Counted from the stretch's first letter, positions 3,672 to 57,273 are shown. The stretch: DNA of 64,000 nucleotides from a virus (IMGVR_UViG_2713896899_000007:1-64000); one strand, 5' to 3'. Program-made: numbers and translations. Notes: a model not told the origin generated them from the sequence alone.

Positions 3672-3763
3672 GTTGAATATGCTCCTTGATTTGGCGGGCT
3701 ATCCTTGCCCGCCATTAAGTAAGTACATACTTATTTTTACCGATGTAAATATTTTTTTCTACA

Positions 3764-6700
3764 TTACAGAAGGCCAATTCTTACTCGTAGGACGTTGTTA
3801 TCGTCATAAACGTCAATCCGCTGACCATTTATGACCAGTCGCCCATTACCTCCGCTATTACCGTTGATCTCAAGCGTTCCATTTTTGCCGAACCGCCATC
3901 CAGATCTACCGCTAACAAAATTGGTAGATTGCAGATCGCCTACTTTTGCATTGGTGATTGTGCCATCCTTGATATACGCACCATTCATATAGGCGATACT
4001 GTTTTCTATAACAAATGGCGTGGTGATCTTCCCGTTAACAGAGTTGACCAAACCAAATCTGTCCGCCTGCACCAAAAACTGAGAAAGACCGGTGGTGTCG
4101 ATACCAAGCGCAATACCGGCAACATACTTCTGCCCTCCGCTCGTTGAAGTCTCCATTTTCAACGTCCACGCGGTTGAGACTTTTTTGTTGGTATCAGCAA
4201 TGGCCGTTGCCTGCTGTTGAATTGTCGCGGTATTTCCATCCACCTCTGCTTTCAGAGTATCGATTCGCCCACTCAGAGCATTATCTGCCTGCGTTCTCGC
4301 TGTCGTTTCAGTTGTTACCGCCGCGGAAATGTTGGCTGCCGTTTGAGACTCTAAGTTTGTGATTTGAGTCGCCAGTGCAGCATCTTGCTCTGTACGCGTT
4401 TTCGTTTCGGTTGCTACAGCCGCTTTAATATCCTCTTTGTATTGAGAGGTCAGCTTGGTGATCTGAGACGACAACGCCGAGTCAGCATCAGTTCGAGCCT
4501 GCGTTTCAACTGCAACGGCCGCACTAATATCTTTCGCTGTCTGTGCTTTTAAACTTGAAACCTCTTTTGTTAAAGCGGTATCACCATCAGCACGAGCCGT
4601 TGTTTCTCTGGCAAGAGATGCCTCGAGATCATTAGCTTTTGCTGTAAGAGACGTAATCTGAGTGGACAATGCACTATCGGCATCAGTCCTTGCCTTTGTC
4701 TCTACAGCAACCGCTGCGGCAATATCAGTTCCGGTCTGTGCTCGCAGGCTGTTAATTTCTCGTGAGAGCGCCTGGTCAGCACTTGCCCTGGCCTCCTGCT
4801 CCTGAGTGATGGCAGCGGATATATCACCGTCAACCTTTGACTGAAGCTGGTTTATTTGTTTGGCTAATGCAGAGTCCCCGCTTGCTCGAGCCTCCTGCTC
4901 ACTACGTATTGCAGCAGAAATATCATCATCAACCTTTGCCTGAAGTTGGGTGATCTGGCTTGCCAGAGCCGAATCTTCCGTTGCTCGGGCTTCTTGCTCT
5001 TCCTTAATAGCTGCGACGATATCGTTGCTTACTTTCGACTCAAGCTGAGTGATCTGTGTCGTCAGAGCTTCATCGGCAGATGTACGAGCCTCCTGCTCTG
5101 TACTAATCGCCGCGCTGATATCTCCTTCAAACTTAGATTGCAGCTGAGTGACACGCTTTGCCAACGCTTCATCGCCATCGGCACGAGCGGTGGACTCTTC
5201 CAGAATACTGGCCTTAATGTCTTCGCCAATTTCTACGCGAATTTCCTCAACCTTCGTGGCCATTGCAGACATATCATCAGCAAAGGTTTTCTGTGTTGTT
5301 GCGATCTTCGCGTTATTGACCATCTGCTTGTGCTGGTCTTCATCTTGACGAAGAGCCAGGTCAATATTTGTTTTGGCTAACGCCTCAATGTTCGTAGTCA
5401 GTTCTGCACTGGCACGATCGACCTCTGCAACCGTCTTTTTCATTTCTTCAACGGCAGCGGAGCTTTCCTCTACCGTTGACTGCAACACTTCCAGTTGTTT
5501 AGCGTTTGCAGCATCGCCTTCAACACGAGCCTCGCTTTCCTTAGCAATAAGAGCTGCTGCTTCATCTCTTGCAGCCTTTATTGCCTCGACTGTATTAGCG
5601 AGAGCTTTATCGTGTTCAGATACGGTGTTTTCGATTTCAACAATTGCAGCATCAGTAGCATCAATTTTTTCAAACGCTTCATTGACCTTGTCGATCGTTG
5701 CCGAAACCTCACCTTTAAGCTCGGTTTGTGCGTTCTCCAAAGCATCGCTACGCTCGTTGAATTTTATTTCAAAATCCGCGAGGTTATCGCTGAACTGCTT
5801 ATCTAATTCAGCTATATCTTCCTTAACGTCGTTTACCGACCCCTCCAAAGATTCGACGCTCTGGTTGATATGCTCATTTAACTCGTCAACTGCTTCTTGA
5901 GAGGCTTTGCTGTTGATGTCCTCAAGCAGAGCCTGACCAAGCTCGGAAGATGTAATTTTGCCAGCCAGGAACGACAGTACATCGCGAGTTGTCGCCTCTG
6001 TACCCAAGTTTGAGTTCGGAGGGCTTAACATACCTCGCTTGTTCGATGCTCGAACCCAGTAATACCACGTTTCGCTATCCCCAAGACCAGCATGTGTAAA
6101 GGTGGTGCTTGCAGACTCTGCGATCAGTTTCGCCGTATCCAGATTGTTGGTCTGGGATGCGTAAACATTAATGTGATCAAGGTCTACCGAATCTGGATTA
6201 ACCCAATTCAGTATCACATTACGATAGTCTCCAACGGCCGTTAATGACGTTGGTGCATCCGGCGGTGTCATTGTGCCCAGCACCTGATAAACGGTACTGA
6301 TAATTTCTGTTTTTTTACCGTTGAATGAAACCGCATACAGTTGGAAGTCGTAGCGTCCATTCTCCGCGACATTAACGATTTCGTATTGCTCTTCGGTTAC
6401 ACGCGCCGATTGCCAGTTCGATACATTGTTTTCATCAGAACGTCGCCAACTGATCCAATACTCTGGAGATTTCCCTTCCCATGTTGCAGTCAGTTTTACT
6501 GACAGGTTGCCCGGGCTTGAGAGGTAAGTCCCTTCAGTGATTTGCAAATTAGACGGCTTGGAGTAAGTCGGGTCCAATACCGTCGTATTCTGCGGGATAA
6601 GCGTTGCACCATTGTCGATCGCCTCATATTTAGACGGATTGTTTTCAACAGCGGTGATGTCAAAGCTACCCGACGTTTCCCCCTGAGCGATGTTAACGAT

Positions 6701-50368: not shown

Positions 50369-50487
50369 TCTTAACTCCGTTGTTTTCTAGTTGTGGTTAT
50401 TTTCACAAATAAGAAAAGGTAGAAAACAATTTATTTAAGGCCACAACTTATGGCCTTTATTTATTCATGCAGAAGAATTTGTAGCGT

Positions 50488-51633: not shown

Positions 51634-53319
51634 TCATTTAACGCGTTTGAAAACGTATACGCTGACTGTGATCCCTGTGTCTTCAAACTCGTTGGTAAAC
51701 GACTTCCCTCTGGCATAAACGTAATTATCCATCGTCATCCAGTCCAGTATTGGCGCAGTGCCCGGCAATACTGCTACAAGACGCCCGCCGACTTTCAGAT
51801 GCCCCAGCGCAGCCATCGTGTGCTCTCTATGACGACCAAGCGAGTACGGCGGGTTCATAACGATTTTGTCGAACTGATAACCTGCGTTGTCCTCAGACCA
51901 CTTTATGAAGTCGCAGCAAATCGTGTTCGTATACCCTTTTCCACGCAGGATATCAGCGAAGAGAGGTGCGATTTCTATGCAGGTAACATCTTCCAGATCG
52001 GCGTTAATATAGGCCAGAAGATCCCCACGTCCGGCTTGAGGCTCCAGCAGCTTCTCACCAGGCTTCAATTCAGTGGCTCTGGCAACGTACTCAGCAATCA
52101 AGCGTGGGGTAGGGTAGAACTGGTGTGATTTTGTATCCGGTATTAAACCGGTAGCCACAATCGTATTTAGCGTATGGCCGATGTCATACGGGAACTGCCA
52201 GTGCTTTTTCTCCTGCACGCCGCCAATGAAGCTCAGTGTGCGCTCAAGCTCTTCCACCTGCGACTTCTGGAGAGCTGAATCAGAGAAGTACCATACGCCT
52301 TTGTCTTTGCTCAATCGCCCGTCACGAAGCGCAGTGCGAACCGGCACGGAGATCGTCTTCTGGATTAACCCGAACTGCTTTGGTGCCCGTGTTTTTGGCG
52401 CAGTGCGGCATGGCGCGGGGATTGCAGCAGGCATACTGTAAGCCAGCACCTCATTCAACTTCCAGGCCACGTCAGGATGTATTTCAAAGTGAACGTTGCC
52501 GTTCTTGAACATCTTCACGCGCATCAGATTTCCATCGACGTTCATCCAGTCACCGGTCTGGCAGTCGTTTGCCCGATACGCAGCTGATAGCACCTCAGCA
52601 GTGCGGTTGATGGTAATAAATTCTTTGTGCGCGAAGAAATGAAGCAAGACACGCAGATCGTCGATGTAGTCCTCTTTGCGATAGTTCACGCTAACGCTGT
52701 CCCGCCAGAAATCAGAAATGCAGTCAGCGATTATCAGCCGCTCGCTGAAACCGTTTGTCTTATTCGTCTTGTGCGCAGGACTCAGCGCCTTAAACAAGCC
52801 ATACACGCGCTCAGAGAGATATTTGTGCCTGTCATTCAGCAAATTAAGCATCGTGGGTATGACCGTTTCTGCTTTGAACTCCGGTACACCAACGAACTCT
52901 TTAACCTTCATCTGGTAGCCGGTTCTGTCAGTTTTGATGACTTCCTGTTTGCCCTCTATAAACTGCTCGCGCCACTCATCTCGACGGGAAGCTGGCATGA
53001 TCAGCAAAACGTTAGTCATGTCCGTGACCTTCCTCCAGTACTCGGCCCAAATATTCTGTTTCACCCATTCCAGATCGACTTTATCCAACCAACCTCGATT
53101 TAAACGCGAGCGATCTTCATCTGGTCGATGGTTTAGTCGCAGCAGGCGATTAATCATGTTGTGGCGTTCGTCGCCATAAACGAAGTCGTGTACCTGATAC
53201 ATGAAGGCGATCTCTTTCTCGCACTCGGCCACGATTTCGTGGATGACATTCATTTCCTGACGATAGTCGATAGCCGTGTTTGAGCTGGCATCGTCGATGA
53301 TGGAAAGGGCTGTATTCAT
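51634..53319 (-). CDS. N6-adenine-type methyltransferase with ~400-aa N-terminal domain of unknown function
   Basis: C-terminal motif I LLEPQAGRGDL and motif IV NPPY about 45 aa apart. Confidence 0.6.
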   Translation of the reverse strand: MNTALSIIDDASSNTAIDYRQEMNVIHEIVAECEKEIAFMYQVHDFVYGDERHNMINRLLRLNHRPDEDRSRLNRGWLDKVDLEWVKQNIWAEYWRKVTDMTNVLLIMPASRRDEWREQFIEGKQEVIKTDRTGYQMKVKEFVGVPEFKAETVIPTMLNLLNDRHKYLSERVYGLFKALSPAHKTNKTNGFSERLIIADCISDFWRDSVSVNYRKEDYIDDLRVLLHFFAHKEFITINRTAEVLSAAYRANDCQTGDWMNVDGNLMRVKMFKNGNVHFEIHPDVAWKLNEVLAYSMPAAIPAPCRTAPKTRAPKQFGLIQKTISVPVRTALRDGRLSKDKGVWYFSDSALQKSQVEELERTLSFIGGVQEKKHWQFPYDIGHTLNTIVATGLIPDTKSHQFYPTPRLIAEYVARATELKPGEKLLEPQAGRGDLLAYINADLEDVTCIEIAPLFADILRGKGYTNTICCDFIKWSEDNAGYQFDKIVMNPPYSLGRHREHTMAALGHLKVGGRLVAVLPGTAPILDWMTMDNYVYARGKSFTNEFEDTGITVSVYVFKRVK

Positions 53320-53460
53320 AATTACACCATTAAATAATTTGTTTTCTTATTGGTGTAATTATCGCAAACTTGAAAAGGCATAAAAGCTGCATTCATAGGC
53401 GTTACAGCAGATTTAAGGCGTAAAAATGGGGGCTTTCGCCCCCTGTCGACTGGTGCAGTA

Positions 53461-54027: not shown

Positions 54028-54324
54028 GTGTTTTCCTTAATGCTTAAACAAGTTGTTTTCTTATTGGCTTTATTGTGATGTGGCATATAAGGGGAGCAAG
54101 CTAAACGTAAAGGTGCAAACTCTCTATTTTGGTCAACGAAACACAAGGGCCATTTGGCCCTTGTCATTAACACTTTGCTTTACGGACTAGCGGATAGGCG
54201 AAGTAGATCGCCAAACCAATGAGGACGCCATCAGAAATGACAGACATCATCTTTCCCGTAAAATCCACCAACACCGCCATCACCAGAAGAGCAATGACGG
54301 TCACAAGCCGGAATCTCTCAAGCA

Positions 54325-54750: not shown

Positions 54751-54843
54751 GTGTTTTCCTTTTGTTATTTGTCAAAACAAGTTGTTTTCTAGTTAAATAA
54801 ATTGCTTACGCAAAGACGGTCAATGCATATGCACTAACAACCG

Positions 54844-55684: not shown

Positions 55685-56275
55685 CTAATTGTTATAAACA
55701 AAACCAATATCTTTCTTGTGAGGCATATCTGCTGCTGAAAAAGCTGCGATCTTCGCGAGTCGATCACATATTTCATTTTCACGATGCCCGGCGTGACCTT
55801 TAACCCACTTCCAGCGAACATTATGTCGACTTGCGGCCTCATCCAGACGCTTCCACAGATCAACATTCTTTACCGGTTTTTTGTCAGAAGTCATCCATCC
55901 ATTGCGTTTCCACCATTTCATCCACTGTGTCATGCCGTTTTTCAGATACTGGCTATCAGAGTGCAAAATAACGTTGCATGGATATTTCAAACGCTCCAGC
56001 CCGATAAGTGCCCCCATCATCTCCATGCGGTTATTGGTGGTGCTATGAAAACCATCTGAGAACTCGCGTTCCTCACCACGATACTGGAGAACTATACCGT
56101 AACCGCCCGGGCCACCCGGATTTTTAAGGCAAGAGCCATCACTGAAGATTTTCACGGTTTTAAGCTGGGGATTGAACTCTACGACAGGCGTTGTGGGATT
56201 GGTGCGGGGAGAATTTTTGTTTTTGTCTTTTTTGCGAGTTTTTGCTTGCGATCGGGCTGGTGTCTTCGACGTCAT
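55685..56275 (-). CDS. ribonuclease HI with basic N-terminal extension
   Basis: FSDGSC...TTNNRME...HSDSQY...[12 protein letters not shown] match RNase HI; track ORF extends to 56329. Confidence 0.8.
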
Positions 56276-56339
56276 ATAAACTCCTGAATCAAGCGCCGCG
56301 CCGATTTTTTTCCTCGCGCGTGCGCACACGCGTGCGTGT

Positions 56340-56857
56340 AATAATTATTAAAATAAACAAATTACTTCCCAGTACAGGTTTTTATAAACCTGAACTGAAC
56401 GAACGAAGTGAGTGAAGTTCACCTCGAACGAAGTGAGAGGTTGTCTTTTCAGGTAATACTCTCCCAGGGAGGTGAGTATAAAATTCCTCACCAACCTGGT
56501 CGTTTCATAACCTGAAAAGCTATGGTCTAAGTCTACTGCCAGCTTAGACTTGGGAAGTTATGGATGACAGCACCCCAGAACCGAGATCTTCCCACACTTT
56601 ATGAAGGGGAGTACTGGATTCAACCTCTCGAAACACCCCAGACTCGACAATCATAAAGTGACCCTTGTCTCTGCTCACTTTGGTTCCCCCTTCCCCGACA
56701 CCTAAACGGCACCGGTTCTACGCTGGTAGTGAGCTTTTTTAAACCTGACGCCAGTGACGCTTACCCCCACCCATCAGGTCGAGTCTCCAGTCTATGACTG
56801 GAAACTATCAGATCTTAGCACTTACAATTCATCTTATGAATAGTTTGTACTTATCTA
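56340..56857. other. ~520-bp ORF-free structured region (direct repeats and hairpins); candidate ncRNA or cis-acting site
   Basis: no ORF of 60 aa or more; GAACGAAGTGAG direct repeat; several 6-7-bp stem-loops. Confidence 0.3.
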
Positions 56858-57088
56858 TCATTTCGATTGATTATTTTCTCGACCATGTAGTTGAACATTC
56901 AAGGCAAACACCTCGTTGATCAACTCACCTAAAAGCTGTTCAACAAGTTCGCGATGCTCCCCAAGATGCAAGCACTTAATTGCCCATTCGTACAAGTTGA
57001 AAGCCTGCTCGCGATCTTTCATCATTTCACGAGCCTTAGCCAGAAAATCGCTCTCTACGAGCGCAACAACATTGGTCGGGTATGACAT
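56858..57088 (-). CDS. hypothetical small protein
   Basis: 76-aa ORF. Confidence 0.4.
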   Translation of the reverse strand: MSYPTNVVALVESDFLAKAREMMKDREQAFNLYEWAIKCLHLGEHRELVEQLLGELINEVFALNVQLHGRENNQSK

Positions 57089-57273
57089 GTTAGTTTTCCT
57101 TAAAGTGGTTCATAAAATCGATTTTAAAGCGTCTGAGAAGGGGTTCTAGTGGATTCTGTAGTGGTGTTCAGGTCTGGGAGTCTCTGATACAAAACAGCCT
57201 GCTTCCGTATATTAATAATTAATATGTAGTTATTTATATACAGAAGCAGGTTAATTACACTCGCCAGAACAAA

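Follow-up and report, generated by a model that had tools for sequence, protein, structure and literature searches.

The window that was analysed (i.e. the whole stretch of 64,000 nt, IMGVR_UViG_2713896899_000007:1-64000) belongs to an SSU5-like phage-plasmid, and all genes in the locus considered here lie on the minus strand, in the order dam methylase, 76-aa ORF (57088..56858), ORF-free segment and RNase HI. The long operon also contains Mre11/Rad50-like genes, nrdAB, td, frd, a 3'-5' exonuclease, a toprim protein (primase) and metG. The preliminary description had marked 56340-56857 as a segment free of ORFs, which holds in so far as every ORF within it is shorter than 60 aa (the longest are of 48, 44 and 41 aa), but not at its left edge, where a mechanically called 74-aa ORF on the plus strand (56191-56415) overlaps the leftmost 76 nt. 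Within the segment lies a structured element of ~440 nt with sharp boundaries, which is read from 56801 to 56362 on the minus strand. In the order in which that strand is read, the features of the locus are:

56858..57088, minus strand: 76-aa ORF, directly upstream of the element and co-inherited with it
56787..56801, minus strand: H1, the 5' hairpin CCAGUC/GACUGG (compensatory pairs 13:34, 16:31 and 20:29)
56743..56779, minus strand: H2, ACCUGAUGGGUGG.../...CACUGGCGUCAGGU, with invariant G.U pairs and a GG bulge (helix 1)
56674..56733, minus strand: H3 domain, CUCAC/GUGAG around CCGGU/GUCGG, with the G-rich junction GGGGAAGGGGGAACC (helices 2-4)
56595..56660, minus strand: H4 domain, CACUUUAUGA/UCAUAAAGUG around H4b (GAGUCUGGG/CCAGUACUC) (helices 5-7)
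56621..56629, minus strand: 5' arm of the long-range pairing, GAGAGGUUG, nine perfect base pairs with 56435-56443
56551..56594, minus strand: H5, UGGGAAG/CUUCCCA with the inner hairpin H5a (helices 8-9, 3 double-changed pairs)
56525..56549, minus strand: H6, hairpin GUCUAAGCUG/UAGACUUAGAC (helix 10, 5 of 10 pairs double-changed)
56445..56519, minus strand: H7 domain, CUUUUCAGGU/ACCUGAAAAG around CCAGG/CCUGG and GGUGAG/CUCACC (helices 11-12)
56435..56443, minus strand: 3' arm of the long-range pairing, CAACCUCUC, overlapping the CCUC arm of M1
56422..56440, minus strand: M1, hairpin CCUC-UCACUUCGUUC-GAGG with an 11-nt loop at 56426-56436 (helix 13, from covariation)
56391..56421, minus strand: M2, hairpin UGAACU-..UCACUUCGUUC..-AGUUCA (helix 14, 3 of 6 pairs double-changed)
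56375..56392, minus strand: terminal hairpin CAGGUUU/AAACCUG, the stem of which varies and is compensated between clades (pair 436:445 is UA or GC)
56340..56374, minus strand: conserved UACUGGGAAGUAA, followed by an AT-rich tract with a partial 'motif A'-like site (from the alignment)
56305..56339, no strand assigned: GC-rich alternating purine/pyrimidine tract with a potential hairpin (56316-56339), and an A-run (from the sequence)
55685..56275, minus strand: RNase HI, 196 aa from an ATG after AGGAG, the usual but not universal downstream neighbour

The 578-nt spacer that holds the element shows 100% identity with E. coli plasmid p009_B and 92% identity with Salmonella phage SSU5; matches to it were found in 12 phage records and 687 PLSDB plasmids, the plasmids coming from Klebsiella, Escherichia, Enterobacter, Salmonella, Citrobacter and Cronobacter. 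Among complete E. coli genomes, 232 of 5,426 carry the element, with zero annotated features beneath it. Many of the element-bearing plasmids are close relatives of one another.

Across ~690 plasmids and phages the core is 95-100% conserved, versus 80-90% in the flanking ORFs. In an alignment of 69 distinct sequences, taken from 75 loci that were gathered via the 76-aa protein, conservation rises from ~0.7 to 0.95-1.0 at window position ~56785 and drops again at ~56385, the corresponding scores being 0.8-0.9 for the 76-aa ORF and 0.6-0.85 for the 5' part of the RNase HI gene. The conserved block runs on past 56362, through the AT-rich tract and the GC-rich hairpin, to ~56305, where the A-run (a T-run on the plus strand, 56305-56311) forms its end before the variable cargo; past this run, conservation stops wherever the cargo differs. 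Recent spread cannot account for a non-coding block whose conservation exceeds that of the coding sequences beside it in the same molecules. The ORF-free segment is confirmed as a real, non-chance conserved feature.

Fold prediction and covariation analysis had both been proposed in the preliminary description as checks. The former gives a minimum free energy z-score of -4.67 for the minus strand and -3.79 for the plus strand (0 of 100 shuffles being as good), while the latter gives 26-31 double-changed pairs, depending on the structure that is used. RNAalifold on 62 distinct sequences yields 128 pairs, hardly any of which are broken. Via the most divergent members of the 76-aa family, a second lineage (L207-L210, on plasmids of Cronobacter sp. 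JZ38 and Enterobacter CP102) and a further locus (L211) were reached, in which the element is ~69% and ~85% identical, respectively; with these divergent lineages added, RNAalifold yields 101 pairs, 31 of which show compensatory changes. In a curated structure of 90 pairs in 14 helices, 98.8% of cells pair and 26 pairs are changed on both sides, compared to 14.8 ± 2.3 in shuffles (0 of 500 reach 26), and when the partners are slid along the same structure as a control, 1-5 double-changed pairs are found. All 14 helices are kept in two lineages that are ~69% identical, and their loops and junctions are near-invariant. The same helices are recovered when divergent homologues are folded independently, and in these independent folds the 69%-identical homologue builds the helices of the H4 domain from a different sequence.

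By itself, covariation does not separate an RNA from folded ssDNA. One-sided changes within the pairs, on the other hand, give G.U in 897 cells versus A.C in only 3; G.U makes up 11% of the paired cells, and several G.U pairs are invariant. The asymmetry between G.U and A.C identifies the minus strand as the one that folds and speaks for RNA rather than DNA. What the segment encodes is a single-stranded, strand-specific element of ~440 nt with a high degree of structure, in the same sense as the early DNA-metabolism operon, and this element is probably an RNA rather than ssDNA. The phage ncRNA that had been among the functions suggested earlier is therefore strongly supported in the form of a conserved, strand-specific single-strand fold, through both the covariation and the G.U pattern.

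The support extends over the individual parts. The stems of H1 are wholly different in sequence across six clades, yet always complementary, and in H2 (helix 1), where 100% of cells pair, 5 of the 13 pairs are double-changed. H2 to H7 form a multi-helix core of ~330 nt, in which H5 carries the invariant GAUCU...UUCUGGGG and the apical loop of the H4 domain contains GAGAGGUUG. The hairpins GTCTAAG/CTTAGAC and GGTGAG/CTCACC that had been noticed before are present as helices 10 and 12, and are confirmed by covariation. GAGAGGUUG forms a pseudoknot with CAACCUCUC, both arms of which are near-invariant in all lineages, with one compensatory change (G->U / C->A) in L211; this pairing and the M1 stem CCUC/GAGG are mutually exclusive. 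A small hairpin that competes with H7 (CAUAAC/GUUAUG) covaries too. M1 and M2 abut without a spacer and both show the 11-nt loop UCACUUCGUUC. The direct repeat of the preliminary description, which is the 13-mer CGAACGAAGTGAG at 56400-56412 and 56425-56437, indeed flanks the palindrome GTGAAGTTCAC, but its start-to-start spacing is 25 nt and not ~29. Two further pairings were discarded, namely the long-range AGACUCGAC:GUCGAGUCU (56778-86 with 56640-48), which is lost in the divergent lineage, and an alternative pairing of the 3' UGGGAAGU with CUUCCCA, which is unsupported, the 3' copy being without covariation.

After the terminal hairpin, a conserved CUGGGAAGUAA is followed by the AT-rich tract, which varies in sequence and length and is present after the twin hairpins in every clade. 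This tract (56340..56374) is a candidate DNA unwinding tract or U-rich tract. The ORF-free segment had been described as ending at a motif A-like site, which is no more than a partial match (56350-56366) to the palindromic AAACAAGTTGTTT motif; the motif itself lies upstream of several other genes. The stems of the 3' module are AU-rich and of 4-7 bp, and the U-rich tract begins ~15 nt past the last hairpin.

In the loci that were collected via the 76-aa protein, the element always lies directly after the co-inherited 76-aa ORF, the family of which was found only in SSU5-like elements (29 clusters); the element family, too, is restricted to SSU5-like phage-plasmids. The 76-aa protein has a confident predicted three-helix model, belongs to no Pfam family and gave no informative match in Foldseek, and neither the model nor Foldseek revealed a recognisable RNA-binding fold. 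As to INDEPENDENCE from rnhA, the usual downstream gene is that of RNase HI, the direct neighbour in most, though not all, lineages. Alternative genes after the element encode a TIR-domain protein, or a DUF7557 protein with a Tad2-like anti-Thoeris gene next in line; in a Klebsiella clade two unknown ORFs are inserted between the element and rnhA, and in some lineages the element is present and rnhA is gone. Since the element is retained even in lineages that have lost rnhA or have it in a displaced position, it must be more than a leader of rnhA, and because the downstream gene differs among lineages, the slot after the element is a cargo hotspot. Element and 76-aa ORF together behave as an autonomous module. 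The basic N-terminal extension of RNase HI, which had been put at ~37 aa, was found again at ~39 aa (the Pfam domain begins at residue 40 of the ATG-started protein), and is poorly conserved and rich in indels.

A conserved (strong) intrinsic terminator lies after dam, upstream of the 76-aa ORF, and a conserved -10-like TAGAAT/TAAAAT lies ahead of this ORF, at a candidate promoter that is weak by consensus and ~750 nt upstream of the AT-rich tract. From the terminator and the -10-like sequence, it seems that the ORF and the RNA are one transcription unit, in which the RNA would be made from the promoter in front of the 76-aa ORF. On the minus strand, no consensus promoter or terminator was found inside or just after the element, and no intrinsic terminator-like site in 56300-56450. 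On the plus strand, no promoter-like site was found within 56362-56790, and the sole promoter-like site (56799-56828) is directed away from the element.

A search of the whole window with Rfam 15 at the gathering threshold (4227 covariance models, among which GOLLD, ROOL, OLE, raiA, RNAI, C4, T-box, RNase P and group I/II introns) gave zero matches. Even at E ≤ 10 no family was matched, the hits to the element of the window and to its divergent homologue L209 being spurious ones to miRNA and HCV hairpins only. ARAGORN found neither tRNA nor tmRNA in the 64-kb window, in agreement with the earlier failure to fit a tRNA. An antisense or immunity RNA acting on its own operon was rejected, as there is one 11-nt match versus 0.8 expected, and none at 12 nt. 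With 16S, 23S and 5S rRNA and the two rrnA spacer tRNAs (Ile, Ala), the loop pairs only as well as its shuffled versions do, and a likeness between the complementary strand and 23S helix 93 was put down to chance. Nothing points to a transfer or packaging site, which had also been put forward. A literature search on SSU5, pHCM2, phage-plasmid ncRNAs and the motif sequence returned nothing on the element. The RNA is absent from Rfam and undescribed in record annotations or in the searched literature. Every sequence feature listed in the preliminary description is thus present at the place given there, with small corrections, while its interpretation is partly supported.

The twin hairpin, as opposed to the core, has relatives elsewhere. 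When viral contigs were scanned with a pattern of two CACTTCGTTC copies, 59 loci outside the SSU5 family emerged, some of which probably represent tandem repeats that match by chance. Complementary stems of at least 6 bp surround the 11-mer in 10% of its instances, versus 0.4% of control positions; homologous 11-mer sites carry compensated stems, and the same loop is found between different stems in unrelated phages. In five marine T4-like contigs the motif lies near g55, uvsW and uvsY. Contig L101 holds two inverted copies and matches the SSU5 module with an E-value of 4.5e-8 in nhmmer and of 2e-10 in a reciprocal BLAST against all phage records. In RB43-type T4 phages (64 records), the spacer between gene 24 and uvsY contains 2+2 inverted units CTC[A/G]CTTCG[T/C]TCG, which surround an AT-rich palindromic centre and are bracketed by two divergent near-consensus sigma-70 promoters. 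The units lie upstream of these promoters, outside the transcripts that start from them, and look like DNA-level elements rather than part of an RNA. In T4 this position is that of oriF, which consists of a promoter and an AT-rich unwinding element where the transcript forms an R-loop; RNase H presumably trims this R-loop, and UvsW would remove it afterwards (PMC3016281). According to nhmmer, only a 48-nt module is common to the SSU5 element and T4-like phages, and no counterpart of the ~330-nt core was found in T4-type phages. A homologous large RNA in the marine T4-likes was likewise rejected, since the adjoining spacers have z-scores of about -1 and are not significantly structured. Many of the CACTTCGTTC arrays are probably chance 10-mer matches inside tandem repeats; type III antitoxin-like repeats were considered for these arrays and dismissed, a toxin-like neighbour not being seen.

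With regard to function, a pre-primer ranks first, with a riboregulator and a trans-acting ribonucleoprotein (RNP) close behind. It is tentatively proposed, by analogy, that the element could be a cis-acting, folded pre-primer transcript of an R-loop-type origin for lytic replication. In a mechanism modelled on ColE1 RNA II and T4 oriF, the folded body of the RNA would keep the transcript off its template, the 3' portion of the transcript would hybridise within the AT-rich tract just downstream, and RNase HI (from the neighbouring gene or from the host) would trim the hybrid to leave a 3'-OH primer, with the twin hairpins, in the RNA or in the displaced DNA strand, possibly acting as a loading or priming signal. 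The pre-primer is ranked first because it unites the DNA-metabolism operon, the AT-rich tract, an RNase HI with a basic extension and a motif in the position of oriF. The second origin or priming site that had been suggested at an earlier stage is a candidate with circumstantial support, from the 13-mer units at the oriF-equivalent spacer, the AT-rich tract and the RNase HI neighbour. Arguing against an origin are the lack of a GC-skew inflection at the locus, a local G-richness of the RNA strand that does not exceed that of neighbouring genes, the facultative presence of rnhA, the weakness of the promoter before the 76-aa ORF, the fact that an antisense RNA I-like promoter was not found, the DNA-level appearance of the RB43-type units between divergent promoters, and the RepA replicon that SSU5-like plasmids already own. 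In addition, R-loop formation in T4 reportedly needs no specific sequence (PMC3016281), which fits poorly with 400 nt of near-invariant structure.

Alternatively, and with a slightly lower probability, the element could be a cis-acting read-through riboregulator, operating by attenuation or processive antitermination with the logic of lambda nut, HK022 put or a very large riboswitch. The fold would then sense a factor and toggle the twin hairpins, by which the entry of RNA polymerase (or of the transcript) into the cargo and the downstream operon would be controlled. The element follows a small promoter-proximal ORF and precedes more than 10 further genes without an intervening consensus promoter, which is consistent with this, as are the U-rich tract downstream and the two sets of competing structures, i.e. 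GAGAGGUUG:CAACCUCUC versus the M1 stem (with one compensatory change in the long-range pairing) and CAUAAC/GUUAUG versus H7, both of which covary. Two abutting stem-loops downstream of an early promoter are, moreover, a put-like architecture. However, prediction gave no intrinsic terminator for the minus strand, 440 nt is far above the size of any known nut/put element or riboswitch aptamer, the support for the alternative structures consists of very few substitutions, and in T4-type phages the loop motif sits upstream of promoters, outside the leaders.

The near-invariance of loops and junctions over 14 helices is reminiscent of ribozymes and RNPs, and could, with a still lower probability, reflect a stable, trans-acting ncRNA or RNP scaffold, possibly with the 76-aa protein as its partner and serving, for example, the takeover of host functions or as a decoy against host defence. 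Processing would release such an RNA from the transcript of the operon, and H1 and the 3' hairpins would protect its ends. Its strict co-inheritance with a small ORF family that is seen nowhere else, its independence from the downstream gene (the next slot being occupied by defence or anti-defence cargo, such as the TIR-domain and Tad2-like genes) and its two identical displayed loops, which would fit a dimeric binding partner, all agree with a function in trans. Yet the RNA has no excess complementarity to the operon mRNAs, rRNA or the two rrnA spacer tRNAs, no RNA-binding fold was detected in the 76-aa protein, and a promoter/terminator pair of its own was not found.

That the conserved molecule is instead a folded ssDNA signal, i.e. 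an sso/ssi-like site for single-strand or lagging-strand initiation that is active when the strand is displaced in rolling-circle or R-loop replication, is improbable. The fold is strand-specific, G.T wobbles are tolerated in ssDNA as well, and the T4-type phages have twin-hairpin units on opposite strands around an AT-rich centre, to which the ssiA/ssiB pair of RSF1010 can be likened; at its variable positions the unit reads GTT or GCT, the triplets that T4 primase recognises. Nevertheless, an 11% share of G.U, including invariant pairs, is characteristic of RNA and would be costly in DNA, 14 helices in 440 nt exceed known sso or ssi elements, and the strand concerned is the transcribed sense strand of the operon. 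A small protein-coding gene, or a functionless sequence conserved via recent spread, can practically be dismissed: phage Cyrano has a 44-aa ORF annotated here (56544-56678) and many of the plasmids are closely related, but the search for a conserved small protein gene was negative, in that no ORF of at least 20 aa in the element has a start, stop and reading frame that the different lineages share (within the sole shared ORF window, substitutions are non-synonymous yet compensate helices, the stop is not conserved and indels shift the frame), and a lack of function is at odds with conservation above that of the flanking genes of the same molecules.

There is somewhat less than an even chance that the SSU5 RNA founds a new class of large ornate RNAs, of which the twin hairpin with UCACUUCGUUC is the effector, and that this recognition unit is the same as that in the element which T4-type phages have upstream of uvsY, in the position of oriF. 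If true, one nucleic-acid signal would serve unrelated phages of the same hosts, either by starting replication or by reprogramming RNA polymerase. The shared 13-mer hairpin unit in any case ties the SSU5 RNA to a poorly understood origin region of T4-type phages, and both the SSU5-type and the T4-type system are directly tractable in E. coli. Clinical Escherichia, Klebsiella, Enterobacter and Salmonella commonly carry SSU5-like phage-plasmids, which also spread resistance genes, and an RNA that is conserved more tightly than the proteins of the plasmid, yet unannotated, is probably central to phage-plasmid biology. It provides a handle on the start of lytic replication, or on the control of the long early operon, in SSU5-type elements, and it adds a rare large structured RNA to the Enterobacteriaceae, in which, to our knowledge, such RNAs were thought to be exhausted.

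Among known systems, ColE1 RNA II is similar in being a folded transcript of several hundred nt that ends beside a potential RNA-DNA hybrid site, in a plasmid-like replicon with a connection to RNase H and a small helical protein gene nearby (cf. Rom). It differs in that there is no similarity in sequence or by covariance model, an RNA I promoter was not found, a separate RepA replicon is present and the adjacent rnhA is dispensable; of this likeness, the fold alone is observed here, whereas a start of DNA synthesis at the AT-rich tract and A-run is putative. With T4 oriF, the element has in common an AT-rich tract, a candidate promoter and a putative processing by RNase H, together with the 13-mer units in the uvsY-upstream spacer (RB43-type) or near uvsY/uvsW (marine contigs), but a minimal oriF is ~100 bp and needs no specific RNA structure, and the 330-nt core is missing from T4-type phages. 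Like GOLLD, ROOL, OLE and raiA, the RNA is large, multi-helix, highly conserved and carried by mobile elements or phages; unlike these, it is smaller (~440 nt), resides in Enterobacteriaceae, is embedded in an operon, has no neighbouring tRNA genes and matches no Rfam family.

HK022 put and lambda nut resemble it in having two abutting stem-loops with conserved unpaired nucleotides, after an early promoter and a small ORF and before a long operon, but those sites are of ~70 nt or shorter, whereas the twin hairpins here are the tail of a 440-nt fold, with no terminators identified and no sequence similarity. P1 c4, P4 CI and N15 CB are, likewise, RNAs embedded in an operon of a plasmid-prophage, and the element lies upstream of ant in SSU5; unlike c4, CI and CB, which are under 100 nt and act by complementarity within the transcript, it shows no such complementarity and no match to the C4 family. 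The PeSL cassettes of T4-type phages have conserved G/C stems, unimportant loops and a near-consensus sigma-70 promoter directly downstream (PMC2839356, PMC4122927). The twin hairpin is comparable in being a short conserved hairpin module that borders variable cargo, and in the marine T4-like contigs it is followed by U-rich tracts and sigma-70-like promoters; identity with PeSL was nonetheless rejected, since the loop is conserved while the stems vary and a consensus promoter is absent downstream in the window. The element resembles ColE1 RNA II, T4 oriF and put/nut and shows the defining properties of none of them and is therefore, with a function that is putative only, filed as a new structured RNA family.

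On the minus strand, dam is followed by a conserved intrinsic terminator (arms at window positions 57198-57211 and 57237-57250, then a U-run), after which repeated CCAGAC boxes and, ~35 nt ahead of the 76-aa ORF, a conserved -10-like TAAAAT/TAGAAT are found (window 57089-57135). Judged from these sequence signals, i.e. the terminator and the -10-like box, the 76-aa ORF and the structured RNA downstream of it appear to form a transcription unit of their own. Within the RNA, the 5' arm of helix domain H7 (56445-56519) faces competition from a small hairpin, CAUAAC/GUUAUG (window 56508-56526), and pairing is kept in both alternatives through the substitutions of the divergent lineage. This may reflect an intermediate formed during co-transcriptional folding, or a switch.

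The conserved block ends at window 56305-56339 with a conserved GC-rich tract of ~25 bp, in which purines and pyrimidines strictly alternate (predicted to be Z-DNA-prone and hairpin-capable), and an A-run that varies in length comes after it. Read on the plus strand, this segment scores as a terminator-like site, which would keep antisense transcription out of the RNA. The RefSeq start of rnhA, a GTG at window 56329, lies within the GC-rich hairpin. Because the length of the A-run differs among homologues, which shifts the frame of the extension from this GTG, and because an AGGAG precedes the ATG at window 56275, the product of rnhA is likely a 196-aa RNase HI.

Compared across lineages, the slot directly 3' of the RNA is a hotspot for variable cargo. 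RNase HI occupies it in most lineages, with two uncharacterised ORFs between the RNA and rnhA in the Klebsiella clade, while rnhA has been lost in some lineages that carry the RNA. Alternative cargo comprises a TIR/TPR protein of 761 aa, and a DUF7557 protein together with a Tad2-like (anti-Thoeris) gene.

Upstream transcription signal, palindrome copies and cargo slots (loci from other genomes in their own numbering)
Window 57190-57250, minus strand: conserved terminator after dam
Window 50370-50439, 53318-53376, 54044-54074 and 54775-54807: copies of AAACAAGTTGTTT(TCT)
Window 56350-56366: partial match to AAACAAGTTGTTT(TCT)
L047 3945-6228, L046 3995-5607 and L207 3829-4916: cargo slot just downstream of the RNA
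L005, L043 and L063, each about 3700-5900: the same slot

The palindromic motif AAACAAGTTGTTT(TCT) is repeated in the window, where several minus-strand genes (HD-domain, DUF4942 methyltransferase, a hypothetical and TerB-like) have it 10-25 nt 5' of their start codons. The motif probably serves as an operator or promoter element, and it is probably what the preliminary description called 'motif A'.

The phage-plasmid (NZ_CP048306.1 62000-110182) carries a T4-like DNA-metabolism set (Mre11/Rad50-like, nrdA, nrdB, td, frd, an exonuclease and a toprim protein) as well as methionyl-tRNA synthetase (metG) and apbC, a gene content which suggests gene flow between it and T4-type phages that share its hosts. 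Hairpins with the 11-nt loop of the twin hairpins at the 3' end of the RNA occur near g55, uvsW and uvsY in marine or AT-rich T4-like contigs, often with U-rich tracts and sigma-70-like promoters 3' of them. In three clades of these contigs they adjoin an ORF of 99 aa, for which Pfam gives a weak Sm-like match (E = 1e-3, under the family cut-off).

Loop-motif loci in other contigs and phages
L101 9020-9260 (also L107, L113, L200): 11-nt-loop hairpins, T4-like contigs
L129 100-140, L145 3650-3900: the same
L161 1100-1140, L198 3925-3960, L144 1925-1955: the same
L079 1070-2080, L140 2570-2700, L088 4690-4760, and L138, L142, L149, L178: CACTTCGTTC tandem arrays
L215 (RB43, NC_007023.1 138187-138755) 190-360: 13-mer unit spacer
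L214 (EC-W2) 1360-1560, and L216, L217, L218: 13-mer unit spacer

Unrelated viral contigs contain tandem arrays with periods of 15-38 nt and units containing CACTTCGTTC, some with flanking stems; these may be either kin of the loop motif or chance tandem repeats.

In RB43-type T4 phages (64 records), the gene 24-uvsY spacer has an AT-rich palindromic centre flanked by 2+2 inverted 13-mer units, CTC[A/G]CTTCG[T/C]TCG, and two divergent sigma-70 promoters (each an 11/12 match) bracket these units. The left arm is invariant and the right-arm units switch between the A/T and G/C variants. This spacer is the position of oriF in T4.
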